DNA of 64,000 bases. Origin: Clostridia bacterium. GTDB taxonomy: Bacteria > Bacillota > Clostridia > UMGS1883. The notes below the pieces were generated by a model. That model was not told the DNA's origin and searched no databases. It was given only the letters and a program-made list of their open reading frames with translations. Each line of letters opens with the position of its first letter. Position 1 is the first letter of the stretch. Both the position numbers and the translations under genes were made by a program. The stretch covers positions 20,826 to 84,825 of the forward strand of contig JAZQAO010000054.1 in NCBI GenBank assembly GCA_045545295.1, read 5' to 3'. This document shows, piece by piece, positions 512 through 55,775 of the stretch.

Positions 512-512
512 A

Positions 513-2429: not shown

Positions 2430-2431
2430 TT

Positions 2432-4519: not shown

Positions 4520-4544
4520 AAACTATTCCTCCAAATTAATTACT

Positions 4545-4728
4545 AAAAAAGAAGCGTGCCGCTTCACCCATGTCGCGTCCCAACAACATTCAATTTTCCA
4601 ATTGTTGCTCGCGATTGAATTACGCAAATTCCTATACGGTAAAAAAGAAGCGTGCCGCTTCACCCACGTCGCGCACGTACAAAGTGCAAACACAGTTTCA
4701 CGCGTACTAATTTACGCAAATTCCTATA
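4545..4728 (+). repeat. Two tandem copies of a ~93-bp modular interspersed repeat (left module AAAAAAGAAGCGTGCCGCTTCACCCAYGTCGCR, variable core, right module TTACGCAAATTCCTATACGGT)
   Basis: Direct sequence comparison with 7 other loci in this window; core subtypes A and B. Confidence 0.85.
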
Positions 4729-4837
4729 AAATAAAAACAGAAAACGGAAAACAGAATGAAAAGGTAGCTAAATGCTCTTAAAACCGATGTTTTGTTTTTG
4801 CGATTTTGTACCTCCAAATTCCGTTTTCCGTTTATTT

Positions 4838-14598: not shown

Positions 14599-14617
14599 AT
14601 CTGTAACTCCTCTCAAA

Positions 14618-17518
14618 TCACTTAACTTCCTTTACGAATACATCACGGATATACGCCTTTGACTGTACACCGCTTAACTTGAAGTCTGCACCAAGCTGGA
14701 ACATATTTTCAAGATTCATGTTTTTAAGATTAACCTTTACAGTCTTCCACTTACCGGTGTTATTACGCTGTATATATTCGACTCTGGGACGAAGCTTTCC
14801 GATACCTTCATAATAGTAGTCGGGGTGATTTTTCTCACGTTTAGCATAGGTGCTGATATTTTCCCATTCAAAGTAATCAATCTTTATGGGGAAATATGTA
14901 TTATCAAGATAAGTAATCTCGATTTCAACGTCGGTCTGTTCTTCTTCAAGGTAGTCAGGCTTAACCTTTACTTCCATAAAGTTGTTCTTGGGAATTTCAT
15001 AGTATGTACCCTTGTCATCCTTATGCTCGAGCATAAAGTGGTCTTCACCCTCGTAGCTGTATGTAGAACAAGCTTCGTTAAGGTCTATCTGACTGCCGGG
15101 AGTGGGATTTTCTGTAATGTCGCCTACGTAAGCCCAGCCGACTTCAACAGTCTTATAATCTTCACTCCAGAGACCGAAGAACGCAGTCTTTGCATCCCAG
15201 CTGAACTGCGGATGTGAATGTCCGGGGTTATTACCCTTTGTATGGTTTACAATAACTTTTGACCAGCCTGCCTCGGTATCCATAAGTACAAGCTTTGTAA
15301 AACCGTTTGCACTGTCGATACCAACGTCGGAAATAAGCCAGCGGTTGGAGTTAAGTGCAGTTGCACAGTGTGAGTAGTTGTGGTCACCGTTTACAAGGTA
15401 ACGGTCTTTTCCGTCCCAACGTGCAAAATAGATGCCTTCTTCTGCCGGCGTTTCTGTTTCTGCACCCCAGTTATAACGGATTTCATCGTGATGGGAGTCA
15501 CCTCTTACAGTAAGAAGATACTCACCGTCTGCAAGCCAGTATTCGTGAACACCTGTTTCACCTGTTCTTTCTGGTGAATACTTTTTCTGAGGGAAGCCTA
15601 CCCATCTTTCACCTGTGTCAATATCCATAACCCATGTTCTGTCATTTACATGTGCACCCTCGTGACAATAGAACACAAGATTTTTCTTTACGGGATTCTG
15701 ACAAAGATGTCCGGGATAAGTATAATCTGTTACAAAATCCTTTGAAAAATCAGGTATGAAAATATTTTTCCAGATGTTATTTTCGATATCGTACTGATGT
15801 ATTGAACCGCCCTGATCTCTCATTTCCCAATAACGGGCATCACGTACACCAATTGTAAGTGCCGTTTCATAAAAGTCAACCTGAAGCATTACACCTGTTG
15901 AAAGAGATATATCCTGATAAGCATCGGGAAGGTGTACTACAACAGTTTCTTCATAAGTGTCAAGGTTTATCTTGCAGATTCTTGAATATTTGTCAAGATA
16001 CCACAGATTGTTTTTCTTTGTAAGACAGAAGAAATGCTCAATACCGGGTCTACCACTGCACATATACTTAACCATATAGGTTTTCATATTATATTCGTAT
16101 ATGTTGGAATTCTTGTCACGGAAATAGAATCTGGTATCGTCTGTGGATGTCATAGGCATCGTATAGTAGTTTTTGATTGCATTTTCACCAAGAAGGTTGA
16201 TTGTGTAATAAGTTCTTCCTGTTTCGGGGTCATAGTGTTCTTCCGGGGGCATATAGAATTCACCCATCAGAAGCCAGTTGATAAGACTTGAATCGCCCGT
16301 TGCTCTGAAAGTATCAACTGTTACTCTGCCTGAATTGTAAAGGTCTGAAAGATAACACTTTTCTGTCTTTAAATTCTTCAAAGGAAGCATATTGTTTGCA
16401 AATGCAACAAGGTTATCCATAAGAACGGTCTTTGTAGGCTGGAATACCATGTTACCTGAATTGATAAGCTTAAGACCTGCTACAACAGAAAGAGGATTTG
16501 TCTTTAAATCTTCCCCTTCATAGCCCATAAAGTTTGCATACCACTCACAAAGCTCACTCTGCGGTAAAGGCTCCTTCGCACCGAGAGTCCCTGTGGTATT
16601 CTTTACGATACCGAGGCTTTCCGCCATACCGACATAAGGTTTGAAGTCTGCAGATACATCGACGAAGGAACAAGGAAGGTTCTGCTTCTCTGCCTCTTCC
16701 TTAAGACCTGCAAACTGAATCATATACTTAAGTGTTTCTTCTCTTGTAAGCTCTTTTCCGAGAATAGCATCTGCATTGTCTGCATTGTACTCATCGAAAA
16801 GGCCCATTACATTAAGAGAGTTTGCCGACTTCGAGTTAAAGAGGTCAAATGTTTCCTCTCCGGCATTACGGCTGAGGTTTGTAACCTCAATCTTTGAAAA
16901 CAAGTTATAACCGCCTGTTACAATACGCATATCGCCGCCGTATTCCATTGCCTGACGGAAAGATGCGTCAGAAATGTAGAATGTACATTCCCACCACTTT
17001 GCCTTTTCATATCGCTCTTCATCGGTACCACCCTTAGGGTCACCCATTTTAAGAACGGAGATACGACCATAGGTGTCGGTCGTACCGGGAATGGTGTAGT
17101 CAAAATGGATATAACCTGCACCACCGAAGTCGTAATAGTTGAATGTAATTTTGAAAGTTGTATCTTCAGGAGATGCGAAAGACGGGTCAAACTTCAGATA
17201 CATAATGTTCTGATAATAAACCTTTCTTCCGACGATACCCTTAAGCTCAACCTTTTCGTTATATGTAACGTCTTCCAGTACAGTCTTACCGAAACCATCT
17301 TCGAAAGTCATATGATTCTCTTCTGCGGTATCGGTGAATATGATATACGCATTATCCTTATCAACAGGCGTCGTCGCCTTGATTTCAGTCTGGGGCATAA
17401 TTACGGGATTCTGCCTGACTTCAATCTCTAATGCCAAAGCATTGATGCCGCCCATAAGAACAAGCATCGCAAACAGAGTGACTGCGCATACCAAACCTTT
17501 CTTAAATATTTTTTTCAT
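14618..17518 (-). CDS. Secreted surface protein with PL22 oligogalacturonate-lyase-like beta-propeller domain and C-terminal shared module
   Basis: Signal peptide; VFYCHEGAHVNDRTWVMD, VHEYW, NNPGHSHPQF motifs paralogous to the 1765-aa protein; GGGGGA RBS. Confidence 0.8.
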   Translation of the reverse strand: MKKIFKKGLVCAVTLFAMLVLMGGINALALEIEVRQNPVIMPQTEIKATTPVDKDNAYIIFTDTAEENHMTFEDGFGKTVLEDVTYNEKVELKGIVGRKVYYQNIMYLKFDPSFASPEDTTFKITFNYYDFGGAGYIHFDYTIPGTTDTYGRISVLKMGDPKGGTDEERYEKAKWWECTFYISDASFRQAMEYGGDMRIVTGGYNLFSKIEVTNLSRNAGEETFDLFNSKSANSLNVMGLFDEYNADNADAILGKELTREETLKYMIQFAGLKEEAEKQNLPCSFVDVSADFKPYVGMAESLGIVKNTTGTLGAKEPLPQSELCEWYANFMGYEGEDLKTNPLSVVAGLKLINSGNMVFQPTKTVLMDNLVAFANNMLPLKNLKTEKCYLSDLYNSGRVTVDTFRATGDSSLINWLLMGEFYMPPEEHYDPETGRTYYTINLLGENAIKNYYTMPMTSTDDTRFYFRDKNSNIYEYNMKTYMVKYMCSGRPGIEHFFCLTKKNNLWYLDKYSRICKINLDTYEETVVVHLPDAYQDISLSTGVMLQVDFYETALTIGVRDARYWEMRDQGGSIHQYDIENNIWKNIFIPDFSKDFVTDYTYPGHLCQNPVKKNLVFYCHEGAHVNDRTWVMDIDTGERWVGFPQKKYSPERTGETGVHEYWLADGEYLLTVRGDSHHDEIRYNWGAETETPAEEGIYFARWDGKDRYLVNGDHNYSHCATALNSNRWLISDVGIDSANGFTKLVLMDTEAGWSKVIVNHTKGNNPGHSHPQFSWDAKTAFFGLWSEDYKTVEVGWAYVGDITENPTPGSQIDLNEACSTYSYEGEDHFMLEHKDDKGTYYEIPKNNFMEVKVKPDYLEEEQTDVEIEITYLDNTYFPIKIDYFEWENISTYAKREKNHPDYYYEGIGKLRPRVEYIQRNNTGKWKTVKVNLKNMNLENMFQLGADFKLSGVQSKAYIRDVFVKEVK

Positions 17519-28941: not shown

Positions 28942-31401
28942 TTAAGATTTATATAAAGTTACATTTCCGTTAAAGAAGTAATCATACTTACTTTTAAAAG
29001 CATTAAGCTGCATTGTAAGCTCATTCGCCTCCTGAATATTTCCGACACTTTTATGTGCAGCAATAAGCGTTGTATAGCTCTCAGCTACCAGCAGTACATG
29101 TGCATTTTTATAAAAAGCATTTAAAACAAGATTGTGTCTTTTTTCAAAACATTCCAACGCTTCATCAAATTCCCATTGTTTTTTAAGCATTTCTCCCTTT
29201 GTTTTCAAAGCTTCAGCCATTTCAAGTTTATAAATCGACAATGGGGTTTCCATTATAATTGCACTGTTAATCTCAAGCCCCTTATCAAGTAACGAATATG
29301 CTTTTTCCGTGAGTTTTAAATCCGTATATATTTCTGAGGCCATATAGTAACATTTATAAAGTTGCTGTTTTAACGGGATTGTATGAATATCCTCAGAAAT
29401 TTCACTATACAACCGAAGTGCGGTCTTTAAATATTCAACAGTATCTTCTTCGTTTTTCAGTCTGTGCCGTACACGGGCAAGATTCAGATAGCTTTCTGCA
29501 ACAATCATGCGAATTTCAACAGTTTTGCTTCTGTCAATTAACTTCAGTGCAACATCATGAGCCTTTGAAAAAGCTAATTCTGCAGCGTTAAGGTGGTTTT
29601 CAACGTTTATTCCGATATGCTGCTCACCATCGTTCTTAAAGGTATTATAGGCAATAATATTTGTGCTTGAATCATTATAGTATTTATTTATTGCCTCTGA
29701 AAGATTTGCTGCAGCACCTATGAAAACAAAAGCCTGTTCCTCCATATCTAACCGATTGTAGTATTCTCCTATACTGCTGAGGTTGAACAAGACTTTTTTA
29801 AGCGTTTGCAGTGAGTTTGAAGGCACACCTGAACCCCTGTATTCAAGAAGCTTTTCTTTAAGCTCTTTAAGATTCACTTTTATGGTCGTTTTAAGCCCGA
29901 TTATGTTATCGCTCTCATACTGACATTTTGCAAGTAATATATAAGCATAAATAAGGTCTACCACAGAGTTTTCAACAGTATCTGACATATATATTTCTCT
30001 TCGGATTCCGATAGCTTTTTCTATGTAACTATAGCAATTTTCACTGTAATTTCCTGTTTTAATAAGAAGAAGCGCTGCCGATTCATAAGCCTCCGCAATA
30101 TGAATTTTCGCAAAATTTTCGTTTACAAACACTGATGCAGACATAAATCTGACTATTTCCATAAAAGACGCAGCAGCCGCATCTGTATTTTTGCCGCAGA
30201 CATAAATATCAGCCAATTCTTTGTATGCTGCAATAACATTTTCTGCATTTTCCTTAGTTGAAGAATTCTCAAAGTCGAATTTTCTTTGGTCTATATATTT
30301 TTTTTGCCATAAAGCCGCATTTTCTGTATCAATTGCACAACCGTCACCGTACTTATACATTGAAACCAAAGCGGGTATTGCATCTGATACCCCTTCCATA
30401 GCTGCGCTGCTTATCATTTTCATTGCTATGTCAGCGTTCTTTTCTACATATATTCCTTTAAGAAAAGCCAAGCCGATAAAGAAGTCCCGTTCGGGAGTTT
30501 TCTCGCTGATAACAATTCCATTTTCTGCAAGTAGCTTTTTTATAATATCTTTTATACGATCAGTTTCCGAAGACGATATTATTTCCGGAAGTGCAGGATA
30601 GTTTGACTTAACCTCATCTGCATTGGTCTTCACTGCCTCTATCGGAACAATCGTTTTATGCAAAGACTTTGCAATGGGATATTCTACAATTTTGATATAG
30701 TTTTCCTCTTCCAGTATGCTGGGGGTTACCATAAGAATAAAAATTGCACTATTCTGAAGTTCCGATTTTATACTGTCATTAAAATCTTCTCCGGGAACCA
30801 AAAACTCGTCATACCAGATTGCAATATTTTTCAGTTCATCGCTTGAATGAATGATATCAAACAGCTTTTGGGTATACTTCCTGTCTTTTTTTCTGTAACT
30901 GAGGAATATCGTGGCATCGAAAGACTTACGAAGTTTACCAAAGTCATACGCAAGCGAAAGTGCCTGTGTTAAAAAGAGGCGGATTTTTTCCAAATATGGG
31001 ATTGCAGTAAAATCAACATTTTCAATGCAAGCGTTTATACACTGTATATTTGCAAATTTTTCGTTAAAAATTGCTTCAAGACCGTTTTCAACCATAATCG
31101 GAAGAACCGGGATTTTAGCTTCGATTGCTGCATCAAATCTCCGCCTGTCAAAACCTGAATCAAACAGGACGCTTGAAGAAACTATCAGCACATAAAGGTT
31201 TACTTTTGAAACGTCAAAATCATAATCCGTTTTATAAAGCTCCTTGTTCTCTTTGTCATCATAAAAAATTGTACACTTGCAAATGTCAAAAATATCATTC
31301 TTGATTTTAAGGAAATGGTCTGAATCTTTTTCATAGAAATCACAAAACAATTTATAATGAGACTGTGACATATCCTGAACATTGCTTAAATACTTTATCA
31401 T
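28942..31401 (-). CDS. TIR-domain protein with Sel1/TPR-repeat C-terminal region
   Basis: TIR-like segment IFLSYRKKDRKYTQKLFDIIHSS...AIFILMVTPSILEEENYIKIVEYPIA; preceding degenerate TIR-like segment; Sel1/TPR helices downstream; locally AT-rich. Confidence 0.7.
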   Translation of the reverse strand: MIKYLSNVQDMSQSHYKLFCDFYEKDSDHFLKIKNDIFDICKCTIFYDDKENKELYKTDYDFDVSKVNLYVLIVSSSVLFDSGFDRRRFDAAIEAKIPVLPIMVENGLEAIFNEKFANIQCINACIENVDFTAIPYLEKIRLFLTQALSLAYDFGKLRKSFDATIFLSYRKKDRKYTQKLFDIIHSSDELKNIAIWYDEFLVPGEDFNDSIKSELQNSAIFILMVTPSILEEENYIKIVEYPIAKSLHKTIVPIEAVKTNADEVKSNYPALPEIISSSETDRIKDIIKKLLAENGIVISEKTPERDFFIGLAFLKGIYVEKNADIAMKMISSAAMEGVSDAIPALVSMYKYGDGCAIDTENAALWQKKYIDQRKFDFENSSTKENAENVIAAYKELADIYVCGKNTDAAAASFMEIVRFMSASVFVNENFAKIHIAEAYESAALLLIKTGNYSENCYSYIEKAIGIRREIYMSDTVENSVVDLIYAYILLAKCQYESDNIIGLKTTIKVNLKELKEKLLEYRGSGVPSNSLQTLKKVLFNLSSIGEYYNRLDMEEQAFVFIGAAANLSEAINKYYNDSSTNIIAYNTFKNDGEQHIGINVENHLNAAELAFSKAHDVALKLIDRSKTVEIRMIVAESYLNLARVRHRLKNEEDTVEYLKTALRLYSEISEDIHTIPLKQQLYKCYYMASEIYTDLKLTEKAYSLLDKGLEINSAIIMETPLSIYKLEMAEALKTKGEMLKKQWEFDEALECFEKRHNLVLNAFYKNAHVLLVAESYTTLIAAHKSVGNIQEANELTMQLNAFKSKYDYFFNGNVTLYKS

Positions 31402-36518: not shown

Positions 36519-36782
36519 ATGAAAATAAAAGACGGTTACATATTGAGCTCAGTCGCAGGGAAAAACATTGTCGTTTCCGTTGGCAGCGATGCGGATTTTT
36601 CCGGAATGCTGACACTTAATGAAACAGGAATGTTTTTCTGGAAGCTGCTTGAAAACGAAACAACAAAAGAAGAAATGATTTCAGCAGTTATGGCAGAGTA
36701 TGATGTTGACGAAAAAACAGTTTCCGAAGACATAGAAGAGTTTTTGACAAAAATAAGAGAAAAAGGAATACTGGAGGAATAA
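36519..36782 (+). CDS. PqqD-like small protein (RiPP-recognition-element type)
   Basis: 87 aa; LTLNETGMFFWKLLENETTKEEMISAVMAEYDVDEKTVSEDIEEFLTKIREKGIL matches PqqD pattern (LN.tg..iW.l.dG..t.eei...l...y.v......dv..fl..L...gl). Confidence 0.5.
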   Translation: MKIKDGYILSSVAGKNIVVSVGSDADFSGMLTLNETGMFFWKLLENETTKEEMISAVMAEYDVDEKTVSEDIEEFLTKIREKGILEE

Positions 36783-36785
36783 ATT

Positions 36786-38018
36786 ATGGAAATAAAGCAA
36801 GAGATAAGACTGCTTGCGCAAGAGGTAGAAAAAGAGATTGCTCCCCTCCTTGACAAAGTTGACAAAACAGCAATGGCAAATCAGGAGAAGGTGCTTGATG
36901 CATTTATAAAGCACCGTGTAGGTGAAAATTGTCTCTATCCCTCAACCGGATACGGTTACGGAGATGTTGGTCGGGAAACACTTGAAAGCATTTATGCCGA
37001 TGTTTTCGGTGCGGAGGACGCAATTGTAAGGCACAACATTGTAAACGGTACACACTGTCTTGCAATTTCTCTGTTTTCTGTTCTGAGACCCGGTGACACC
37101 CTTCTTGCCGGTGCAGGAAAACCATACGATACTCTTGAGGAAGTTATTGGCATTTCAGGAAATGCAGGAGGAAATCTTAAAGAATTCGGCATCGGATATA
37201 AGCAGGTTGACCTGATAGATGGAAAAATTGATCTTGATGGAATAAAAAAAGCCCTTACTCCCGATGTAAGGGCAGTTATTCTTCAGCGTTCAAAAGGATA
37301 TGACTGGAGGGATACCTTAAGCAGCCAGGCACTTGGAGAAGCTATTTCTTTTGTTCACGGGATAAATCCCGATATTTGCTGTATTGTTGATAACTGCTAC
37401 GGGGAATTTGCAGAAACAACCGAACCAACACAGTTCGGAGCAGATATGGTAGTTGGCTCGCTTATAAAAAACACCGGTGGCGGAATTGCTCAGACAGGAG
37501 GTTATATTGCAGGCAAAGCAAAATATATTGAGCTTGCCGCAAACAGAACTACTGCACCGGGAATAGGCAAAGAATGTGGCGCAACAATCGGGCAGAACAG
37601 ATTTATGTATCAGGGGCTTTTTATGGCTCCTCACACCGTTGCACAGGCGATTAAAAGTGCAATTTTCGCCGGAGCGCTTCTTTCTAAAATGGGCTACGAG
37701 GTTAATCCTCTCCCCGACGGGAATCATTATGATATAATACAGGCCATTAAATTTAACGACAAGGATAAGCTTATAAGGTTTATTCAGGGCATTCAGAAAG
37801 CATCTCCCATTGACAGCTATGCTATTCCGATGCCTTGGGATATGCCGGGTTATCAGCATCAGGTAATTATGGCGGCAGGTACGTTTGTATCCGGCGCGAG
37901 CATTGAATTAAGTGCAGATGCACCGATTAAGGAGCCGTATGTAGGATTTTTACAGGGCGGACTTACTTATGAAAGCGCAAAGCTTGCTATTATGTACGCC
38001 GCAGGCGAAATACTATAA
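36786..38018 (+). CDS. YnbB / aluminium-resistance family PLP-dependent enzyme (Met-gamma-lyase-like fold)
   Basis: PSTGYGYGDVGRETLESIYADVFGAE, GKPYDTLEE, RSKGY, VDNCYGEF, SLIKNTGGGIAQTGGYI motifs; start 4 nt after the pqqD-like stop, with its RBS inside that gene. Confidence 0.75.
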   Translation: MEIKQEIRLLAQEVEKEIAPLLDKVDKTAMANQEKVLDAFIKHRVGENCLYPSTGYGYGDVGRETLESIYADVFGAEDAIVRHNIVNGTHCLAISLFSVLRPGDTLLAGAGKPYDTLEEVIGISGNAGGNLKEFGIGYKQVDLIDGKIDLDGIKKALTPDVRAVILQRSKGYDWRDTLSSQALGEAISFVHGINPDICCIVDNCYGEFAETTEPTQFGADMVVGSLIKNTGGGIAQTGGYIAGKAKYIELAANRTTAPGIGKECGATIGQNRFMYQGLFMAPHTVAQAIKSAIFAGALLSKMGYEVNPLPDGNHYDIIQAIKFNDKDKLIRFIQGIQKASPIDSYAIPMPWDMPGYQHQVIMAAGTFVSGASIELSADAPIKEPYVGFLQGGLTYESAKLAIMYAAGEIL

Positions 38019-38384: not shown

Positions 38385-38476
38385 AAAAAAGAAGCGTGCC
38401 GCTTCACCCATGTCGCGCACCTGCAAATGTCGAACATAGCTTCACGCGAATAAAATTACGCAATTTCCTATACGGT
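38385..38476 (+). repeat. Single copy of the modular interspersed repeat (core subtype D)
   Basis: Identical core to the second copy at 35017..35108. Confidence 0.85.
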
Positions 38477-38511
38477 AAAAAAAGGTTGATGCGATGCATC
38501 AACCTTTTTTG
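38477..38511 (-). terminator. Intrinsic terminator overlapping the stop codon of the GRE activase gene
   Basis: aaaaaaaggttgatgc gat gcatcaacctttttt; 9-bp stem plus T6. Confidence 0.7.
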
Positions 38512-39314
38512 TCGGAAATAATATTTTTTAATTCTTCAATTTTATCTTTGTCGGGAATATTGAAACTTTGAACTTTCCTGCCAAGTGCAGTATATTTATG
38601 CTCTCCCATAGCATGATATGGAAGGAGTTCAACTTCTTCCGGATATCCGTTTGTGTCAAAAAATGCTTTGATTTTTTTCAGTTCTTCTTCGCTGTCATTT
38701 ACATCGGGGATAACGGGAATTCTTACCCGTACACAAGCAGCGGATTTCAGGAGCTTTGCAAGATTTTCAAGAATAAGAGTATTCGAAACACCCGTATATT
38801 CTTTATGAATTTCGTTGTTCACAGCCTTGATATCATACAAAAACAAATCGGTGTAGGGGCGTATCTCTTCAAAGTTGTCCCACGGCACACATCCTGCGGT
38901 ATCAACTGCGGTATGTATGCCGTTTTCTTTGCATTTTTTTAAAATTTCAAAAAGAAAATCTATCTGCAGCATACATTCTCCGCCCGAAAATGTTACGCCA
39001 CCGCCCGAGGTTTCGTAAAAGGTTTTATCTTTTATAATTTCATTAAAAACTTCATTAACTGTATATTCTTTTCCGCAGATTTCCTTTGCGTCGTTAAAGC
39101 AGAAAAAGTTTTCGTTATCTGCCGTAATATCCTTGCATTTTCCGCAATTTGTGCACTTATTTTTATAAAACAAGATTTCTTTTTTGAAATTCTGACTTTC
39201 TGGATTATGACACCATTTACATCTTAAATTACAACCCTTGAAAAACACCGTTGTACGTATTCCGGGACCGTCAACATATGAATTTCTTTCTATGTCAAAT
39301 ATTGTTGCTTTCAT
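38499..39314 (-). CDS. Glycyl-radical-enzyme activating enzyme (PflA family radical SAM)
   Basis: DGPGIRTTVFFKGCNLRCKWCHNPES (CxxxCxxC) and GGVTFSGGEC motifs; extra CTNCGKC auxiliary-cluster segment; GGAGG RBS. Confidence 0.85.
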   Translation of the reverse strand: MKATIFDIERNSYVDGPGIRTTVFFKGCNLRCKWCHNPESQNFKKEILFYKNKCTNCGKCKDITADNENFFCFNDAKEICGKEYTVNEVFNEIIKDKTFYETSGGGVTFSGGECMLQIDFLFEILKKCKENGIHTAVDTAGCVPWDNFEEIRPYTDLFLYDIKAVNNEIHKEYTGVSNTLILENLAKLLKSAACVRVRIPVIPDVNDSEEELKKIKAFFDTNGYPEEVELLPYHAMGEHKYTALGRKVQSFNIPDKDKIEELKNIISDKKG

Positions 39315-39369
39315 TGTTTACCTCCTGAATTGCACACTTCAACATTCCAAAATATCGCCCAAAACCGTT

Positions 39370-40125
39370 TTAAATTGTTGCACAATTATCTCCTCCGTCT
39401 GCCACAACCGTGTGCCCGCAGATAATTTCACCGAAATCACTCATAAGGTAAAAAGCAAGCTCTGCAATTTCGTCAGGTCTTATAAAACGTTCTATTGCGT
39501 GACGTTCGTATTTTGCATTTATGTCGTTTGCATAATGTGAAATCATTGGCGTAAATGTTGCCCCGGGGGCTATGCCGTTGATTATAATGCCATTATGCCC
39601 GTATCGTTTTCCAAATGCTCTTGTCCACTTGATAGTTGCTTCCTTGGAAGCTCCGTAACTGCCGACTATATCCATACATACCGCATTTGAAGCGATGTTT
39701 AAAATGTTGCCCCGCACATTGTTTGCAAGCATATAATCAATTTCGTTACGCATAAGGAAAAATGCTGCTTTGAAATTTATATCAGTCAGAGTGTCCCACT
39801 CATCCTCTGTAATATCCCACGGCTCATAGCCTCTGCCCGTGTACTGGCTTGTTCCCAAAGCTGCGGCATTTACAAATCCGTTAAGTCCCCCTAAAGTTTC
39901 AGCTACTTCATCAAATAATGTAATATGGTCGTTTACCTTTGTAATATCAAAAGCCTTGTAATACAAATTTCCGCTGTTTATTTCATTTGCGGCATCTTTT
40001 AATTTTTTCTCATTTCTTCCGGCAATAAGCACCTTTGCGCCGGCGTCGCAAAACCTTTTTGCGATAGCCTTTCCGATACCGCTGCCACCGCCGAAAACCA
40101 GTATTTTATTATTTCTCAGATTCAT
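39370..40125 (-). CDS. Short-chain dehydrogenase/reductase (SDR)
   Basis: GGGSGIGKAIA Rossmann motif; YGASK catalytic-type motif; 4-bp overlap with upstream GRE gene. Confidence 0.85.
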   Translation of the reverse strand: MNLRNNKILVFGGGSGIGKAIAKRFCDAGAKVLIAGRNEKKLKDAANEINSGNLYYKAFDITKVNDHITLFDEVAETLGGLNGFVNAAALGTSQYTGRGYEPWDITEDEWDTLTDINFKAAFFLMRNEIDYMLANNVRGNILNIASNAVCMDIVGSYGASKEATIKWTRAFGKRYGHNGIIINGIAPGATFTPMISHYANDINAKYERHAIERFIRPDEIAELAFYLMSDFGEIICGHTVVADGGDNCATI

Positions 40126-42242
40126 TTTTGAGTAGTCCTTTCGATAATATTATCCTGTAATGCTTCATTAAGCTTGACAAAGTAGTCAGAAAATCCCGAC
40201 ACTCGAACACGCAGGTTTTTATAATCTTCGGGGGTCTTCTTAGCGTTAATCAAATCTTCTTTTGAGACGTAGGTAAGCTGAAAATGCACGCCACCGTTTT
40301 TGAAATAGGTTTCAAGCATATCAACAGTTTTTTCAAAGTTGTCATCGTTTTTAACAAGCTGTTCGTCGATAGTGATGTTAGTAACCGTTGATCCGCATCC
40401 GATAGCATTGGGGTCAATCTTGGCAATGGAATTTAAAAGTGCAGTCAGCCCATTTCTGTCCTTGCCTTCGCCTTGCCCGAGACCGAATTTGAGGGCGTCA
40501 CCTTTCTGTCTTCCGTCGGGGGTGGCTTCTGTTTTCTCGCCAAACCACTTATAGTGCTGATGGTATCCCGTAAGGTCGCCCACAAGCCAGTGGTAGCCGA
40601 AGAGGTTGGTTTTATCCTTTAAGAATTCATACAAGCTCTGATATAGCTTCTGTGCTACATAGTTAGACCTGTCGGTGTCGTTCCCGAAAAAGTCACCTTT
40701 TTTCAGAATTACGGCACGGAGCTCTTCGTATCCCTGCCAGTTGTTCTTAAGTGCATCAATAAGCTCTGCCATTGTGATAATTTTCTCGTCAAATACAAAC
40801 TGCTTTACGATTATGAGCGAATCAATAACATTTGCAATTCCCATATACATGGGGGAGGCAATCACAACATCGCCTGCACCTTGTGTAAGACTTTTTGCTT
40901 TTTCAATGCACCCCTGAAAGAAAATGCTTGAAAGGTAGTTTATATCCTTTGCGCGAATACTGTTATATTTGTTGTCGTATTCATAAGCAATTTCAAGGTC
41001 GGAAAACATTTCTTCAAGAAATGCCCGGTAAAATTCGTCGAAGCTTTTTGTGCTTATTATTTTTTCTGATTTTCTGTGAAAGAGTGTTTCGATACTGCGG
41101 ACAAAATTTATTTTTGAGTTACTACCTGCGATTGCACCAAGAAAAGCCGGCTCATTACAACCTACGGTTGTGTAGCCTACAGCCTTTTCAAATGGGAAAC
41201 CACAGATTTCGGTATAGCACTTCATTCGCTTTTCATCATTCTGGAAAGCAATTCGCTTATGTGGGTCCTTTCTTTCACAGTCAAGTGCAAAACGGAATAC
41301 TTCTCTTGGAGTTTTCTTTGTCCAGCGAAGCGTTACTTGCGGAATCCAGGTGGGAAGCTCAAGAAGGCTCTCAAGTATAAGCTCCGATACTTCGTTGAAT
41401 CCGTCTTCGCCGTTTTCTAAATATCCGCCTATGCAAAAGTGTGACTCGCCACCTCTTGTAAAATTAGGGTTATCTATATGTGTTGCCGCCTGAAGCATAA
41501 GGAAAAGCTCCTGCAGATATTCTTTTGCTTCTTCTTTTGTAAGAGTACCATTTTTAATATCAGTTTCATAAAACGGGGTAAGGTATCTGTCAAGTGTTCC
41601 TACACTGTCGGGGTCTGCGGAAAAACATACGTAAATTGTAAGAACTGCCTCGTAAAAAGAGGAGGGCTTATTTTCAGGAACCCTGAGAAGTGCTTCGGAC
41701 AATTTTGTGAGGTTTTGTCTGTGCTTTTCGTTGCTTGTAATTTTCGATAATTCCAGAGCTTTGTCGGAGCATTTGTGTGCCCATTTAATAAATGTGTTTG
41801 CAACATTTTTTAAAGCATTCAAAAACTCTATTTCTTCGGGAATTGTATGCTTTTTCAATGAATCTTCAATCTCGTCAATTATTCCTGAAAGCCCTTTTTC
41901 AAGAACTTTCTTATAATCTGCAGTTGCATGCTGCCATTCAAAGGTAGAAAGGTTGTCAATGGGCTTTTTGTAAAATTCTTCGGCAAGAATCTGGAAGGAT
42001 TTATGTCCTATACGGTGGAAAGCATCGCCAACAACTGTGTTGTCGCAGTTGAAAAAACCCGTCATAGCGGAATATTCTGTCAAAACAGGCTCCTGATTTA
42101 ATATAAATTCGCAAAGCCTTTTTGACTCTCGCTGTTGTTTTGAAAGAAATAAATCCTCTCTGTCAAATCTCGTTTCTGTGGTGTGTGCATACATCTTTCC
42201 TTCAAGTGTCAATTTGGCAAGTGCCGTGATTCTTTCGTTCAT
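40122..42242 (-). CDS. Glycyl radical enzyme, PFL fold, Cys-x-Glu (eliminase-type) active-site loop, substrate unknown; unusually short (706 aa)
   Basis: C-terminal glycyl radical motif RVRVSGFSDYF, ATPDGRQKGDAL and GGVHFQLTYVS segments as in PFL/DhaB; active-site loop VGCNEPA; AAAGGCGG RBS before ATG 42242. Confidence 0.8.
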   Translation of the reverse strand: MNERITALAKLTLEGKMYAHTTETRFDREDLFLSKQQRESKRLCEFILNQEPVLTEYSAMTGFFNCDNTVVGDAFHRIGHKSFQILAEEFYKKPIDNLSTFEWQHATADYKKVLEKGLSGIIDEIEDSLKKHTIPEEIEFLNALKNVANTFIKWAHKCSDKALELSKITSNEKHRQNLTKLSEALLRVPENKPSSFYEAVLTIYVCFSADPDSVGTLDRYLTPFYETDIKNGTLTKEEAKEYLQELFLMLQAATHIDNPNFTRGGESHFCIGGYLENGEDGFNEVSELILESLLELPTWIPQVTLRWTKKTPREVFRFALDCERKDPHKRIAFQNDEKRMKCYTEICGFPFEKAVGYTTVGCNEPAFLGAIAGSNSKINFVRSIETLFHRKSEKIISTKSFDEFYRAFLEEMFSDLEIAYEYDNKYNSIRAKDINYLSSIFFQGCIEKAKSLTQGAGDVVIASPMYMGIANVIDSLIIVKQFVFDEKIITMAELIDALKNNWQGYEELRAVILKKGDFFGNDTDRSNYVAQKLYQSLYEFLKDKTNLFGYHWLVGDLTGYHQHYKWFGEKTEATPDGRQKGDALKFGLGQGEGKDRNGLTALLNSIAKIDPNAIGCGSTVTNITIDEQLVKNDDNFEKTVDMLETYFKNGGVHFQLTYVSKEDLINAKKTPEDYKNLRVRVSGFSDYFVKLNEALQDNIIERTTQK

Positions 42243-42377
42243 ATTAATACCGCCTTTCACCATAAGTATATCTGTATTATCGGAAATGTAAATACACAAA
42301 ACACTCCGTTTATACTTTTCGCTACAAAATTATTGACTTAATACTATGAATATGGCATTATAAGAGAAGGTGATAGT

Positions 42378-43160
42378 ATGAATAATAACTTTATCATAAC
42401 AGAAATCGGCAGAGCCATACTTGTGGGTAAAGATGAATATCCTGCCGCGAAAGTAACCTTCGGCGGAAAATTGAAATATAACGAACTTATATATCATTTA
42501 AGCGGAAAATCAACAGTTCATTTCGATGGAAAAATTCTTGAAACAGAGGAAGATACGATTCGCTTTTTGCCCAAAGGAGAAAATGGAGAATATATTGTTG
42601 AAAAAAAAGCAGCGGGAGAGTGTATAGATGTATTTTTCGATACTGATATTCCCGTGTCGGAAGAAGCTTTTGTAGTGAAAGTCGCCCAAAGTGCAACTGT
42701 TTCAAGCTTGTTCAAAAAACTTTTTTCAGTATGGGTTGCTAAAAACGATGGCTATTATTATGAATGTATATCACTGCTTTACAGAATTCTTGCCGAAATG
42801 CAAAAGCAAAACTACATTCCACCCAATCAGTACGACACAATAAAACCTGCGATTGAGTATATAATGGAAAATTTCCTTAAAAGCAAAATTTCAGTTCCTT
42901 TTTTAGCTGAAAAATGTGGTATAAGTGAGGCGTACCTTAAAAAATTGTTTGTCAAAAAGTTCGGAATGTCACCCCTTCGGTATATTATTCGATTGAAAAT
43001 AAATCACGCCTGCGATCTTCTGCATTCAAATCAGTATTCAGTAACGCAGGTTGCAGAGCTTTGCGGATATGACAATGTATATTTTTTCAGCCGCCAGTTT
43101 AAAGAATATGTCGGTATCACCCCCACAGAGTTTGTTGAAAAATATAAGTCTTCAAAATAA
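42378..43160 (+). CDS. AraC-family transcriptional regulator, divergent from the GRE operon
   Basis: C-terminal AraC HTH (NQYSVTQVAELCGYDNVYFFSRQFKEYVGITPTEF). Confidence 0.8.
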   Translation: MNNNFIITEIGRAILVGKDEYPAAKVTFGGKLKYNELIYHLSGKSTVHFDGKILETEEDTIRFLPKGENGEYIVEKKAAGECIDVFFDTDIPVSEEAFVVKVAQSATVSSLFKKLFSVWVAKNDGYYYECISLLYRILAEMQKQNYIPPNQYDTIKPAIEYIMENFLKSKISVPFLAEKCGISEAYLKKLFVKKFGMSPLRYIIRLKINHACDLLHSNQYSVTQVAELCGYDNVYFFSRQFKEYVGITPTEFVEKYKSSK

Positions 43161-43275: not shown

Positions 43276-43950
43276 TCACTTACAAAGGTTTATAAAATTT
43301 TCAAAAAACCTGTTTTCAATGGGATTTCCTTCTACAAAGCTTTTTTCAGGATGCCACTGAGTTGCAAAGATGCGTTTTTCTTTCCATTCAACAGCTTCAA
43401 TAACACCGTCATCTGATACTGCAACAGTTCTGAGTCCGGGTGCAAGCTTATCTATTGCCCAATAGTGATATGAATTGACCTCTGCAAAGTCCGAATTAAA
43501 CACATCGTAAACAAAGGAATTCTTTTCTATGCTTATTTTATGGTTTCTTGACATGGGATTACTGTGTATACTTTCATCAATCTCTTTCAGGTTTCCACCT
43601 AAATACACGTTTATCGCCTGAAGTCCGCCACAGATTCCTAGTATTGGTTTGTTGTTTTTTACAAACCAATCAATTAATTTTGCATCCAGAGAATATTCAT
43701 CATAGGCTTGTTCTTCACGAAATGGCTCTCCTCCCCAGTATGATGGGTTGATATTCGTACTGCTTCCCGGAACTATAAGTCCGTCACATTTTTCACAGAT
43801 TTCAGTGAAGCCGTATTCTGTCATGATACAATTCATCCCTACCTTATATTTTTCAGCCATAAGCTCCCAGAAACAAGGTATAGAAAAACGCTCATCCCAA
43901 CCATCGCCACGTCCCATATTGACATATCTTAAAACAGTTGCAAAATTCAT
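43276..43950 (-). CDS. Peptidase C26 / class-I glutamine amidotransferase-like gamma-glutamyl hydrolase
   Basis: GICGGLQAINVYLGGNL (nucleophile Cys) and ATQWHPE motifs; AAGGTGA RBS. Confidence 0.75.
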   Translation of the reverse strand: MNFATVLRYVNMGRGDGWDERFSIPCFWELMAEKYKVGMNCIMTEYGFTEICEKCDGLIVPGSSTNINPSYWGGEPFREEQAYDEYSLDAKLIDWFVKNNKPILGICGGLQAINVYLGGNLKEIDESIHSNPMSRNHKISIEKNSFVYDVFNSDFAEVNSYHYWAIDKLAPGLRTVAVSDDGVIEAVEWKEKRIFATQWHPEKSFVEGNPIENRFFENFINLCK

Positions 43951-43966
43951 AAATTCACCTTGCCTA

Positions 43967-46438
43967 TTATAATACTTTATATCCCTGTGCTTCTACAGCA
44001 CTTTTTAATACTTCAACTGTTACGCTGTCGTCGTGTTTTACAATTGCAGTACCTTTTTCGTGGCTGGGTATCGCCTCTGAAACACCTGATATTCCTTCAA
44101 GTGTCTGCTTTACTCTTGCCTCACAGTGAGGGCACATCATACCTTCAATTTTAAGTGTTGTTTCCATTGTTTCTGTCTCCTTTTCTTTATATGTTTTAAA
44201 TAAATTTAATCTTAACGCATTTGATATAACACAGACACTGGAAAGACTCATTGCCGCAGCACCGAACATAGGATTTAACGTCCAGCCTGTTATATTAATC
44301 CACACACCGGCAGCAAGGGGAATTCCCACTACATTATAGAAAAATGCCCAGAAAAGATTTTCGTGAATATTTTTTAGGGTTTTACGGCTTAGTCTGATTG
44401 CCTCAACTACTCCCATAAGGCTCTTTCCTGTAAGAACAATGTCAGCTGATTCCACTGCCACATCTGTTCCTTTTCCTATTGCAACACCTACGTCAGCACG
44501 GGTAAGTGCGGGAGCATCGTTGATACCGTCACCCACCATCATTACTTGACCTTTTTCCTGAAGTTTGCGGATTACCTCTTCTTTTCCGTCGGGTAACACA
44601 TCAGAAATAACGTTCGTGATACCAAGTTCTGATGCAATTGCCGTGGCGGTATTTTTGTTGTCACCGGTAAGCATAACAACCTCTAACCCTAGACCTGTAA
44701 GGATTTTTACTGTATCCTTGCTGTCATCTTTAACCGTATCTGCTATGGCTATAATGCCTGCAATTTCTTTTTCTTTTACAAATATAACCGGGGTTTTCCC
44801 CTGACGTGCAAGCCTATTAAGATTTTCACGGATAGCGTCATTTACAAAAGTAAGCTCTTCAACCATTTTCAGATTTCCACCACAGATGTTTTCTCCAAAG
44901 ACACTGCCCTTTACTCCGTTTCCCGGAAGAGATGTAAAGGAGTCTGCCTTTATCGACTCAATCCCTTTTTCTGAGCAATAAAGGTTAATTGCCTTTGCAA
45001 GCGGATGCTCGCTCTGAATTTCAAGAGCGTAAGCAATCTTAAGAACATCGTCTTTTGAAAAGTTGCCAAAGGAAATCACATCTGTAACCTTTGGCTCACC
45101 TTTTGTAAGGGTGCCTGTTTTATCAAGGGCTACAAACTTTACTTTTCCTGCGTTTTCCAGAACTTCGGAAGTTTTGTAAAGTATTCCATGTTTAGCCCCT
45201 ACACCACTGCCTACCATTATGGCAACCGGTGTTGCAAGACCTAACGCACAAGGGCAACTGATTACAAGCACTGAAATTCCCCTAGCCAGTGAAAATCCAA
45301 AGCTCTTTCCCAAAATGAGCCATATAAGCATACTCACAAGAGCAATAATTATGACAGTCGGAACAAAAATGCCCGAAACCTTATCTGCAATTTTTGCAAC
45401 AGGTGCTTTTGTTGATGCCGCATCACTTACCATTTTAATTATTTTTGAAATAGTTGTGTCTTCCCCAACACTTATGGCACGGCATCTGAGATAACCTGAC
45501 TGATTGATTGTTGCAGCCGAGACCTTGTCTCCGGAAGTTTTATCCACTGGCATACTTTCTCCGGTAAGTGCCGTTTCATTAACTGCACTGCTACCTTCAA
45601 TTACTATGCCGTCTGCCGGAATGCTTGCTCCCGGTTTTACGACGAAAATATCATCAACAACAACATCCCTTGAATCTACTGTAATTTCTTTTCCGTCACG
45701 GATAATTGTTGCAGTTTTCGGAGAAAGCTCCATAAGACTTTTTATGGCATTTGTGGTTTTTCCCTTTGAATATGCCTCAAGCAGCTTTCCAACTGTGATA
45801 AGAGTAACAATCATTGCAGCTGATTCAAAATAAAGCTCATGCATATACTTATGTGCAACGTGAATATCTCCGTTTATATATGCACTGCACATCACAAAAA
45901 GAGCATATACACTGTAACAAAAGGATGCAAGCGACCCAAGCGATACAAGCACATCCATATTCGGAGCACGGTGAATTGCACTTTTAAATCCGCTTATGAA
46001 AAACTTTTGATTTATTACCATAATTATGCCTGAAAGAAGCAGCTGCGCAATACCTACGGCAAGGGGATTATCCTTGAAAACACCGAAATAAGGCAAACCA
46101 AAGAGCATATTCCCCATTGAAAAATACATCAGCACCACTAAGAGCGCGACAGAGAATATGAGCCTGTATTTCATAGCAGTAATTTCTCCTTTTTCGCTTA
46201 AGTCACTGCCTTGTGTTTCCTTCTTTTCTCCTGCTACTGATGCTTTGTAACCAGCATTTTCTACTGCACTGATAATACTCTGATGCGATGCAGTTCCCTC
46301 TGTTATCATAGTATTTGTAAGAAGATTTACACTGCAGCTTGTAACACCGTTAACTTCTGATACTGCTTTTTCCACGCGGGCACTGCACGCAGCACAGGAC
46401 ATACCTGTAACTATATACTTATTCATAATCTGTTTCAC
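43967..46438 (-). CDS. copA: Copper-translocating P1B-type ATPase with N- and C-terminal HMA domains; GTG start
   Basis: GMSCAACSARVEKAV and GMMCPHCEARVKQTL HMA motifs; CPC in SCPCALGLATP; DKTGTLT; GDGINDAPAL. Confidence 0.9.
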   Translation of the reverse strand: MKQIMNKYIVTGMSCAACSARVEKAVSEVNGVTSCSVNLLTNTMITEGTASHQSIISAVENAGYKASVAGEKKETQGSDLSEKGEITAMKYRLIFSVALLVVLMYFSMGNMLFGLPYFGVFKDNPLAVGIAQLLLSGIIMVINQKFFISGFKSAIHRAPNMDVLVSLGSLASFCYSVYALFVMCSAYINGDIHVAHKYMHELYFESAAMIVTLITVGKLLEAYSKGKTTNAIKSLMELSPKTATIIRDGKEITVDSRDVVVDDIFVVKPGASIPADGIVIEGSSAVNETALTGESMPVDKTSGDKVSAATINQSGYLRCRAISVGEDTTISKIIKMVSDAASTKAPVAKIADKVSGIFVPTVIIIALVSMLIWLILGKSFGFSLARGISVLVISCPCALGLATPVAIMVGSGVGAKHGILYKTSEVLENAGKVKFVALDKTGTLTKGEPKVTDVISFGNFSKDDVLKIAYALEIQSEHPLAKAINLYCSEKGIESIKADSFTSLPGNGVKGSVFGENICGGNLKMVEELTFVNDAIRENLNRLARQGKTPVIFVKEKEIAGIIAIADTVKDDSKDTVKILTGLGLEVVMLTGDNKNTATAIASELGITNVISDVLPDGKEEVIRKLQEKGQVMMVGDGINDAPALTRADVGVAIGKGTDVAVESADIVLTGKSLMGVVEAIRLSRKTLKNIHENLFWAFFYNVVGIPLAAGVWINITGWTLNPMFGAAAMSLSSVCVISNALRLNLFKTYKEKETETMETTLKIEGMMCPHCEARVKQTLEGISGVSEAIPSHEKGTAIVKHDDSVTVEVLKSAVEAQGYKVL

Positions 46439-46722
46439 CTCATAAGTTTTTTCAGTATATCGAGCAGTTCATCAACTGTTGATTCTTTACCGTCTTTTAT
46501 ATCTTTTTCAACACAGGTTTTTATATGATTGGAAAGAATTTCCCGATTCAAGGCATCCAGCGCAGCATTTGCCGCAGTTATCTGCGTTATAACATCGGTG
46601 CAGTAAGCATCCTCATCAATCATCCTGCCAATTCCTCTTATTTGCCCCTCAATACGCTTTATTCTGTTTAAAAGCAGCTTTTTTTCGTTATCAGTTCTTT
46701 CTTTTTTTCTGCAGCAATCCAT
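46435..46722 (-). CDS. csoR: CsoR-family copper-sensing transcriptional repressor
   Basis: LLNRIKRIEGQIRGIGRMIDEDAYCTDVITQITAANAALDAL matches CsoR/DUF156; 4-bp overlap with copA. Confidence 0.8.
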   Translation of the reverse strand: MDCCRKKERTDNEKKLLLNRIKRIEGQIRGIGRMIDEDAYCTDVITQITAANAALDALNREILSNHIKTCVEKDIKDGKESTVDELLDILKKLMR

Positions 46723-55539: not shown

Positions 55540-55552
55540 ATGTAAAAACAGA

Positions 55553-55775
55553 TTTGGTAGAGGTGCGGAATCTATCAGTACGATATGCAACTCGGGACAT
55601 TCCTGCATATCTGAAAGGAGCTTCCGCCGAAGTTTTGGGAGGCAATGTCCGTTTCCCGGGCTGGGCTGCAGTACAACATATTGCAGACTGTCACGTAAGT
55701 GGAGCGCTATCGTATATTTATGGCACTTTTTGTGTCTTTTTGCGGTACAGGCTCTGCCTGTACCATTTTTGTTTA
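55553..55775 (+). promoter_or_regulatory. Lysine riboswitch (L-box) with terminator-type expression platform
   Basis: GGTAGAGGTGCGG, CTGAAAGGAGCTTCCGCCGAAG, ACTGTCA, GGAGCGCTATCG segments match conserved L-box elements (as in B. subtilis lysC leader); terminator ggtacagg-ctctg-cctgtacc + atttttgttt at 55745-55775. Confidence 0.65.

Follow-up and report, generated by a model that had tools for sequence, protein, structure and literature searches.

The 64,000-nucleotide stretch of Clostridia bacterium DNA analysed here (contig JAZQAO010000054.1, positions 20,826 to 84,825 of the forward strand; hereafter the window) carries a compact cassette of four genes, in which a glycyl-radical enzyme (GRE) is followed by a short-chain dehydrogenase/reductase (SDR) and a radical-SAM GRE activase, and is faced by a divergent AraC-type regulator. 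We lean towards reading this cassette as an anaerobic module for catabolism or detoxification that is induced by its substrate and has at its centre a GRE of a new functional subfamily. The short GRE probably acts on a substrate new to GREs and would form the centre of an unrecognised, AraC-controlled and horizontally shuffled toolbox pathway of uncultured gut Clostridia (Christensenellales and Oscillospirales), in which a hydroxylated compound of dietary or host origin would be freed from its peptide or ester conjugates by the products of optional genes (dipeptidase, PGA_cap, PTE, beta-lactamase-fold hydrolase and esterase), and in which the activases would make up a series with two, compact-two and one auxiliary cluster. 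What is new here is the sharply bounded, widespread, uncultured-only clade, the place of the SDR as an optional part of a shuffled toolbox, a natural activase with one auxiliary cluster, and the finding that the surrounding genes are uninformative. The features of the cassette are as follows.

38391-38405, minus strand: intrinsic-terminator-like hairpin GAAGCGGCACGCTTC followed by TTTTTT, 94 nt 3' of the activase stop codon (consensus scan)
38499-39314, minus strand: radical-SAM GRE activase, 271 amino acids (Pfam Radical_SAM and Fer4_12)
39370-40125, minus strand: SDR, 251 amino acids (Pfam adh_short 7e-39, adh_short_C2 3e-42)
40122-42242, minus strand: GRE, 706 amino acids, 81.0 kDa, reading frame from ATG (Pfam PFL-like 4e-86, Gly_radical 4.7e-22)
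40191-40205, minus strand: GRE glycine loop R680-V681-S682-G683-F684 (GRE fingerprint; G683 is the predicted radical site)
41151-41162, minus strand: GRE Cys loop G361-C362-N363-E364, invariant in the family alignment
42243-42377, no strand: shared control region of 135 bp between the GRE and AraC genes (consensus scan, sequence)
42378-43160, plus strand: divergent AraC/XylS-type regulator, 260 amino acids (Pfam HTH_18 2.5e-21, HTH_AraC 8e-18)

All four open reading frames (ORFs) are intact within the interval given in an earlier note on this DNA, and Pfam assigned the domains of each, so that the four-gene layout with a divergent AraC gene described there holds. The program-made ORF of the GRE reaches further upstream, to a TTG at 42299. 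The best promoter-like site of a consensus scan (–35 TTTACA at 42292-42287, a spacer of 16 nt and –10 TATACT at 42270-42265) and a ribosome-binding site just 5' of the ATG at 42242 both lie within this TTG extension, and more than 200 homologues of the GRE measure 705-712 amino acids. Because the TTG precedes the promoter-like site and the ribosome-binding site, and because of these homologue lengths, the length of 706 residues proposed before, counted from the ATG, is correct. The stop codon of the GRE gene and the start codon of the SDR gene share 4 nt (40122-40125), an overlap that had also been described, and the SDR is predicted to be translationally coupled to the GRE through it. The hairpin and T-run at 38405-38391 likely mark the end of the operon. 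The gene order recurs at dozens of loci and is thus not a product of chance. The GRE is under purifying selection: in comparison with its relatives, purely synonymous codon differences outnumber amino-acid-changing ones 2.3-2.6 to 1.

Two loops had been singled out in the GRE, the radical glycine loop RVRVSGFSDYF and the active-site loop VGCNEPA, and both are found in its translation. The first agrees with the GRE fingerprint RVxG[FWY]x6-8[FL]x4Qx2[IV]x2R (PMC13450708), reading RVSGF-SDYFVK-L-NEAL-Q-DN-I-IE-R in the window. In the second, C362 aligns with the catalytic Cys of five solved GREs, placing a catalytic Cys on the Cys loop, which in the superfamily lies inside a 10-stranded barrel, and the loop as a whole aligns with GCVEP (C433/E435) of glycerol dehydratase (GD) and with the corresponding loops of HplG, HypD, HpyG and HpsG. 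The adjacent Cys-Cys pair of PFL and TdcE is absent, the window loop being G-C-N-E, and the separation from PFL drawn in the earlier note is borne out by the PFL model listed below. The protein is indeed short, at 706 residues compared with 787 for GD (59 fewer at the N-terminus and about 22 elsewhere), and this length is conserved in its family. It is shorter than every characterised PFL-like GRE matched (759 amino acids and up), and its mass lies at the bottom of the usual GRE range of 80-100 kDa (PMC13450708).

The earlier note had named clear orthology to a GRE of known function as the finding that would overturn its reading. Orthology was assessed with NCBIfam models that have curated cut-offs, with a PDB sequence search and with Foldseek, which together ruled it out. 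The NCBIfam scores of the window GRE were as follows.

Glycerol-dehydratase family, TIGR01774: 281.6 bits, cut-off 678.2
HpsG: 280 bits, cut-off 1000
HypD: 275 bits, cut-off 1100
HpfG: 247 bits, cut-off 1000
CutC: 222 bits, cut-off 1050
IAD: 210 bits, cut-off 1100
PflD-type: 207 bits, cut-off 1109
HPAD: 164 bits, cut-off 1150
PFL, TIGR01255: 89.5 bits, cut-off 994

No model therefore exceeded 282 bits, against cut-offs of 678-1150 for the models of full-length enzymes, and identities ranged over 18-30%, reaching at most about 30% with any solved or named GRE. The best PDB sequence matches were GD (230 bits) and HplG (222 bits), and no neighbour stood out. Small Fe-S subunits, which X-succinate synthases have encoded next to their catalytic subunit, were looked for, and the GRE, SDR and activase genes have no ORFs of this kind among or next to them; the BSS and MASS chains score just 118-145 bits against the window GRE. 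In PLSDB no family member was found on plasmids, the best tblastn match being the GD of C. butyricum at 30% identity. The literature search returned nothing on a GRE of about 706 amino acids, nor on any association of a GRE with SDR, PTE, M20 or PGA_cap genes; a preprint on a metallo-bile-salt hydrolase that surfaced in it deals with an unrelated amidohydrolase family. None of the characterised GREs, all of which are listed in a 2026 review of the superfamily, is like the window GRE, and the review describes whole GRE clades as still without experimental validation (PMC13450708). Because the GRE matches no enzyme of known function, it probably performs an undescribed anaerobic breakdown reaction.

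The extent of the family was determined by searching 1.84 billion cluster representatives at 50% identity. Matches over the full length, aligned from residue 1, score between 795 and 543 bits (52-39% identity) and are followed by a thin shell of other GREs of about 705-712 amino acids near 390 bits; the bulk of GREs scores 210-270 bits and aligns just from about residue 104. Since generic GREs align only from there, the N-terminal 104 residues are specific to the family, and by these sequence comparisons the short GREs of about 706-712 amino acids form a discrete and sharply bounded clade. A scan of one genome per species, over 185,579 species, found 71 loci, all of them in metagenome-assembled genomes (MAGs) of Clostridia (Christensenellales, Acutalibacteraceae, Oscillospiraceae, Ruminococcaceae and Candidatus Ornithomonoglobus) from ruminant, deer, rabbit, human and bird gut. 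There is also a family member of Lentisphaeria at about 46% identity, and in the searches made no isolate genome carries the short-GRE family. Several MAGs have two copies of the cassette that differ in their accessory genes, or have it in tandem arrays beside other GRE paralogues. At L007, L009, L012, L035, L037, L040 and L057 the short GRE often stands in tandem with other units of AraC, activase and GRE genes whose GREs are 25-29% identical to it. Several of these tandem GREs (719-753 amino acids) have an unusual glycine loop, RVCGWN, together with a GCYEP Cys loop, and in one case GDSL and EamA genes flank the GRE; a GD-like GRE of 881 amino acids also stands beside the short one at L057. 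MAGs with such tandem units appear to hold expanded sets of uncharacterised GREs.

To relate the sequence to a reaction, structure and alignment were read together. An AlphaFold2 (AF2) model built from an alignment of 96 family sequences (42-96% identity) was confident throughout (pLDDT 94.6, pTM 0.92), and in Foldseek it superposed on every solved PFL-like GRE with TM-scores of 0.79-0.84 at 18-25% identity. Invariant in the alignment are W103-Q104-H105, D212, H268-F269, G361-C362-N363-E364, G559-Y560, R680 and G683. In pairwise alignments E364 falls on GD E435 and H105 on GD H164, the proposed general acid (PMC13450708); at this position, which in HypD is H160, the HplG alignment is shifted by one residue, a Glu is found in HpyG, and the HypD alignment stops short of the region. 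D212-S213 aligns with GD H281-S282 and belongs to the same loop as HypD D278, an essential acid/base residue. E266 maps to HypD D339/F340 and the GD Y339 region, and G559-Y560 to the HypD T645 region; position 377, the counterpart of the carboxylate-binding Y450 of HypD, varies, being Lys in the window where the family consensus has Thr. The predicted pocket is acidic or hydrogen-bonding (N97, H105, D212, S213, E266, N363, E364 and Y560), and among the mapped positions there is no conserved Arg/Lys anchor such as sulfonate lyases have; for both reasons a neutral or cationic substrate is favoured. The curated models and structures that score best are those of eliminases and isomerases (GD family, HpsG, HypD and HplG, with model scores of 275-282 bits), compared with 164-210 bits for decarboxylase models and 89 bits for PFL. 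The Cys-x-Glu motif of 1,2-eliminases and isomerases, whose Glu contacts the substrate hydroxyl, is present as the invariant C362-N363-E364, a motif that is necessary for this class and not exclusive to it. We favour a reaction in which a small hydroxylated compound, neutral or cationic, undergoes radical 1,2-elimination or ring opening; polyols, amino alcohols and hydroxylated amino acids would be the favoured substrate classes.

We further analyzed the family loci by calling and clustering the ORFs in all of them. The constant core consists of the divergent AraC gene of about 260 amino acids (59 loci), the GRE (72) and the activase, last in the operon (54). Between GRE and activase lie accessory genes. 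The SDR is found there at 28 loci, a PTE-family hydrolase at 22 and an M20 dipeptidase at 19 (Sapep/PepV model TIGR01887: 222 bits, cut-off 208), along with a serine hydrolase of the beta-lactamase fold at 9 loci and, at 7, PGA_cap, which is always accompanied by the dipeptidase and whose protein is weakly similar to the peptide epimerase MslH. GDSL esterases, an S9/BD-FAE esterase, an EamA permease and a YitT-family membrane protein occur occasionally. Among 47 complete operons, 21 consist of GRE and activase only, 5 have the GRE-SDR-activase order of the window, and the remainder are combinations that extend to GRE-M20-PGA_cap-PTE-SDR-activase. The compact GRE, SDR and activase operon that had been described is thus real, but it is only one reduced form of a modular operon in which the SDR is an optional accessory; the window cassette is without any of the accessory hydrolases of the family. 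The GRE of L080, only 44-45% identical, is yet accompanied by PGA_cap, M20, SDR, PTE and beta-lactamase-fold genes, and its SDR is 64% identical to that of the window. The accessory genes are orthologous across the deepest split in the family.

Comparison of the window with its closest relative, L006, resolved the borders of the cassette. The two are 91% identical in DNA from exactly the AraC stop codon to just past the activase stop codon, with no homology outside, and differ by one clean 845-bp indel with the PTE gene, between SDR and activase. The L001 locus (1-7000 and 14600-15700) has a cassette with M20, PTE and SDR genes and a PGA_cap fragment, flanked on one side by ParB, relaxase, NikA-like and RepA_N genes and a group II intron maturase, and on the other by TnpV, which suggests that this copy is carried on an integrated mobile element. 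Because homology ends at the borders, L001 adjoins mobile-element genes and several MAGs hold more than one copy, the cassette moves and is re-tooled as a unit. A 41-nt direct repeat around the cassette was considered as a mark of insertion and rejected, as it is part of a genome-wide 96-nt element of which two copies bracket the cassette; with the flanking repeat being this dispersed element, the case for horizontal movement rests on the ending of homology at the borders and on the L001 context. Deep family members stand in unrelated contexts with no conserved transporter or informative neighbour, the EamA-type permease and YitT being just sporadic. The suggestion in the earlier note that the pectin-rich surroundings hint at the substrate does not survive this comparison: as DNA homology with L006 ends at the cassette borders and neighbourhoods elsewhere are unrelated, the pectin neighbours are uninformative on the substrate.

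A working mechanism can be laid out from these elements. The AraC-type regulator would sense the substrate or a relative of it and activate the divergent promoter from a site overlapping the –35. From the motifs present and what is known of the family, the radical-SAM activase is expected to cleave S-adenosylmethionine and abstract a hydrogen from G683 of the GRE; the glycyl radical would then generate a thiyl radical on C362, which would abstract a hydrogen from a carbon that bears, or is next to, a hydroxyl of a small polar substrate. With E364, H105 and the invariant D212 performing the acid/base chemistry, a neighbouring O- or N-leaving group would be expelled (1,2-elimination) or a ring opened (isomerisation), giving an aldehyde or ketone. 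The SDR would convert that carbonyl, in the window most likely by NADPH reduction. Across the family, the optional accessory hydrolases probably free the compound from peptide-, amide-, ester- or lactone-linked precursors, and the hydrolase-rich accessory set suggests, circumstantially, that the GRE substrate is released from a conjugate in the full system. Candidates, none with direct support and in no order of rank, are peptide-derived amino acids of the hydroxyproline type, amino alcohols set free from esters or amides, the polyols of teichoic acids, sphingoid bases and quinate-type cyclitols.

The part assigned to the SDR has a serious alternative. The protein has the complete classical set of motifs (G12GGSGIG, N86-A-A, S145 and Y156xxxK160); its best NCBIfam model is a glucose 1-dehydrogenase subfamily (147 bits, cut-off 215), and no equivalog was reached. 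An Arg after beta-strand 2 marks NADP(H)-preferring classical SDRs in the established SDR classification. R38 of the window SDR sits there, and the enzyme probably prefers NADP(H). Reduction of the carbonyl product of the GRE would be the simplest role; the alternative is that the SDR acts as a lactol dehydrogenase, forming with the PTE-type hydrolase a dehydrogenase/lactonase pair and not reducing the GRE product. By this route, a hydroxy-aldehyde or deoxy-sugar made by the GRE would cyclise to a lactol, the SDR would turn it into a lactone and the PTE-type enzyme would open the lactone; in a variant, the SDR/PTE pair would prepare the substrate of the GRE. SDR and PTE genes do lie adjacent, in one order or the other, in L006, L008, L010, L020, L022, L023, L025, L035, L042, L053 and others, and what separates L006 from the window is the indel with the PTE gene. 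The window would have lost its lactonase, with hydrolysis being spontaneous or encoded elsewhere. The best models and structures for the SDR are glucose 1-dehydrogenases, and the PTE family includes phospho-furanose lactonases. However, every SDR match is far under the equivalog cut-offs, R38 suggests NADP(H), which is more usual in reductases (although Bacillus glucose dehydrogenases also use NADP), operons with the SDR but no PTE gene and with PTE but no SDR both occur, and the PTE fold also covers many hydrolases that are not lactonases. We regard the lactonase route as rather unlikely, and retain reduction of the GRE product as the working assignment of the SDR.

Several points weigh against the proposed elimination chemistry and the pathway drawn around it. 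The pocket was mapped by pairwise alignments at about 25% identity and is ambiguous between D210 and D212, the HypD alignment setting D278 opposite D210. The Cys-x-Glu motif also occurs in GRE isomerases and in the decarboxylase HPAD (Cys503/Glu505, two residues apart) (PMC13450708). Being in HPAD too, it is by itself not proof of elimination and is suggestive without being diagnostic; the earlier description of VGCNEPA as typical of dehydratase/lyase-type GREs stands as to the loop and its invariant C-N-E, but not as to its diagnostic value. Accessory content is scattered over the GRE tree without correlation with subclades, which makes any tie between it and the GRE substrate circumstantial. 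The family loci contain no conserved transporter. With 21 of the 47 complete operons having no SDR gene, product reduction is not obligatory, and the SDR, which often adjoins the PTE-type hydrolase and has sugar 1-dehydrogenases as its best models, could be an oxidising lactol dehydrogenase. The function given here for the GRE is a prediction.

The presence of the motif in HPAD also raises the question of whether the GRE might be a radical decarboxylase that acts, in the manner of HPAD, IAD or AAD, on an acid freed by the accessory amidases or esterases. Besides the Cys503/Glu505 pair of HPAD, IAD has an essential Glu502, its proposed proton donor, and the amidases and esterases of the family operons could liberate carboxylic acids. 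In contrast, the decarboxylase models score lower than those of the eliminases (IAD 210 and HPAD 164 bits vs 275-282), no gene for an HPAD-type small subunit is present, and the His aligned with the dehydratase general acid is invariant. The mapped pocket positions include no conserved basic residue for a carboxylate, and the SDR would be left without an obvious role after decarboxylation. We consider decarboxylation improbable and continue to favour elimination or ring opening.

A further alternative, that the GRE is a divergent orthologue with the same substrate as B12-independent glycerol/propanediol dehydratase, HypD, HplG, CutC or a sulfonate lyase, draws on the fact that its top structural and sequence neighbours are GD, HplG, propanediol dehydratase and HypD, and that GD systems also pair the dehydratase with a product reductase. 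The GD of C. butyricum (PDB 1R8W/1R9D) is the best PDB sequence match, with its 230 bits over 600 aligned residues, and has the best query-normalised TM-score of the top Foldseek matches (0.84); both have the Cys-x-Glu loop, H164 aligns with H105 and S282 with S213, a radical-SAM activase adjoins, and a product-reducing dehydrogenase belongs to the pathway. Identity is nevertheless about 25-30%, the N-terminus of the window protein is 59 residues shorter and unrelated, GD H281 and D447 are replaced by D212 and a Ser, the Val of the Cys loop is Asn, and the reductase is an SDR whereas that of GD is an iron alcohol dehydrogenase.

Among the hydroxyproline-type GREs considered (HypD, 6VXC/6VXE; HplG, 7VUA; HpyG, 8ID1; HpzG, 8IOF), all of which have the Cys-x-Glu loop, HplG is the top Foldseek match (E 3e-43, TM 0.82) and the second sequence match (222 bits). 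The invariant D212 of the window lies in the loop of the essential D278 of HypD, with the acidic E266 at D339/F340, and hydroxyproline-type pathways employ peptidases or epimerases and a downstream reductase, recalling the Sapep dipeptidase and PGA_cap of the window family. Identity to these enzymes is only 22-25%, however; the carboxylate contacts S334, Y450 and T645 of HypD are not conserved, position 559 of the window being Gly, and the window cassette has no P5C reductase, OrtAB or hydroxyproline epimerase genes. The isomerases YbiW and PflD (1,5-anhydrohexitol-6-phosphate; 8ID7, 8ID0), which make a ketone by cleaving a ring C-O bond, likewise have the Cys-x-Glu loop, and PflD, with 765 amino acids, is the characterised GRE nearest in size. 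They score lower (177-183 bits), no kinase, phosphotransferase-system or aldolase genes accompany the window family, and no conserved phosphate-binding basic residues were found in its alignment.

Taken as a whole, orthology with retention of substrate is very unlikely. The GRE falls more than 700 bits short of every equivalog model and about 400 bits short of the GD-family subfamily model; Foldseek identities of 18-25% to solved GREs single out no nearest neighbour; the substrate-binding residues differ, as at the counterparts of GD H281 and D447; and neither D216, Y208 and T502 of CutC nor the Arg/Gln/Arg triad of the sulfonate lyases was seen as a conserved family feature. The bona fide GD-like GRE of L057, standing beside a family member, argues for different functions.

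That the cassette is a decaying or non-functional remnant, as the in-frame TAA at codon 410 of the L006 GRE and the loss from the window of the PTE gene and half of the activase ferredoxin domain might suggest, is hardly credible, given four intact ORFs with every catalytic motif, the dominance of synonymous changes, and a reduced activase that recurs (C4 is missing in about 37% of 51, and L001, L003, L006, L007 and L022 share the reduction). The TAA replaces a GAA in a gene (L006, 4360-6480) whose product is 94% identical in amino acids to the window GRE, and reflects either a recent pseudogene or a MAG assembly error.

The activase is the second component in which the window departs from the usual pattern. 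It scores 323.9 bits with TIGR02494 (glycyl-radical enzyme activating protein; cut-off 174.35), as expected of a dedicated activase, and its radical-SAM CX3CX2C motif is C28, C32 and C35. Most GRE activases carry eight extra cysteines in a ferredoxin-like insert for up to two clusters, PFL-AE and RNR-AE having none (2026 review, PMC13450708). In the window activase, whose whole core aligns with E. coli PFL-AE, the insert lies between residues 41 and 80 and holds only C54, C57, C60 and C72 as extra cysteines (plus C80). It thus falls short of the eight: Thr takes the place of C4 and a deletion has removed the C5-C7 motif, with C1-C3 and C8 kept. In bacterial ferredoxins, C1-C3 and C8 ligate one cluster and C4-C7 the other. 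The window activase has therefore probably lost exactly one auxiliary cluster, and the single extra Cys cluster assigned to it earlier (here C54, C57, C60 and C72) is upheld and conserved. It is intermediate between the two-cluster activases of the CutD, GD-AE and HypD-AE type and the minimal E. coli PFL-AE. Within the family the insert takes three forms, full-length with eight Cys, compact with eight Cys and that of the window; the C4 cysteine is missing in about 37% of 51 aligned activases, and a shortened insert like that of the window is also found at L001, L003, L006, L007 and L022.

In the control region, a promoter-like site for araC lies on the plus strand at 42333-42361, and an operator-like block at about 42325-42287 (GTAGCGAAAAGTATAAAC ... 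TTTGTGTATTTACA) overlaps the GRE –35. In an alignment covering the intergenic regions of 14 diverged loci, three elements are conserved: the TTGACA of the araC-side promoter, the block CGAAAAGT(A/G)(C/T)AAA, and a second related element, GTG(C/T)ATTTAC, that overlaps the GRE –35. AraC-family activators usually have sites that overlap the –35, and the conserved block is a putative site for the AraC protein. The regulator has its helix-turn-helix region at residues 176-254 (HTH_18), in agreement with the C-terminal double helix-turn-helix of the family; its N-terminal domain is without a family match in Pfam and is presumably the sensor. An Rfam scan of the window found no riboswitch near the operon.

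The GREs of gut bacteria perform hard anaerobic chemistry, leading to trimethylamine, p-cresol, skatole and a precursor of H2S. If the substrate of the short GRE is an abundant dietary or host compound, a new reaction would be added to the known gut microbial transformations. The clade is a well-defined target, sharply bounded in sequence and marked by its unique N-terminus and by a Cys-Asn-Glu loop that is invariant; the AraC sensor and the conserved operator offer a practical handle on the substrate by way of a reporter screen, and the combinatorial accessory hydrolases constrain what the substrate may be. The one-cluster activase bears on what the auxiliary ferredoxin domain does, a purpose that the series of activases could reveal. 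What gives the system its importance is chiefly that a new GRE reaction is likely, together with its experimental tractability.

Other features of the window were recorded alongside the cassette. A Peptidase_C26 gene at 43276-43950 (minus strand), of the gamma-glutamyl hydrolase/PuuD-like amidotransferase fold, was considered as a further accessory and rejected: such a gene adjoins the cassette in only 2 loci, at 37% identity, and the window copy belongs with the copA operon. The second copy lies directly after the activase of L030 (4602-5165), and that of the window lies 16 nt 3' of a copper-ATPase-like gene on the same strand (43967-46438), with a 95-amino-acid ORF (46435-46722) just upstream. 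A linkage of this gene to the GRE is doubtful.

The dispersed intergenic element of about 96 nt is present in 13 copies in the 64-kb window, against 0 expected, either singly or as tandem pairs 92-96 nt apart (4558, 4654, 26843, 34934, 35030, 38398, 43168, 46952 (minus), 47044 (minus), 51401, 51495, 57522 (minus) and 57618 (minus)). Its conserved 5' end, AAAAAAGAAGCGTGCCGCTTCACCCA(T/C)GTCGC, contains a hairpin with the form of a terminator when read on the opposite strand, and the hairpin at the operon end (38391-38405) is part of this repeat. A variable middle with apparent paired changes is followed by a conserved 3' end, ACGCAAATTCCTATA, and the element is without an Rfam match. Elsewhere in the window, a PqqD-family protein (87 amino acids) is encoded directly 5' of a Met_gamma_lyase (PF06838) protein of 410 amino acids (36519-38018, plus strand), and nothing ties this pair to the GRE cassette. 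A protein of 819 amino acids (28942-31401, minus strand) with an N-terminal TIR and a C-terminal TPR region is reminiscent of anti-phage defence or signalling proteins. A lysine riboswitch aptamer (RF00168, 95.9 bits) at 55550-55717 on the plus strand is the only Rfam family that reaches its gathering score in the window.

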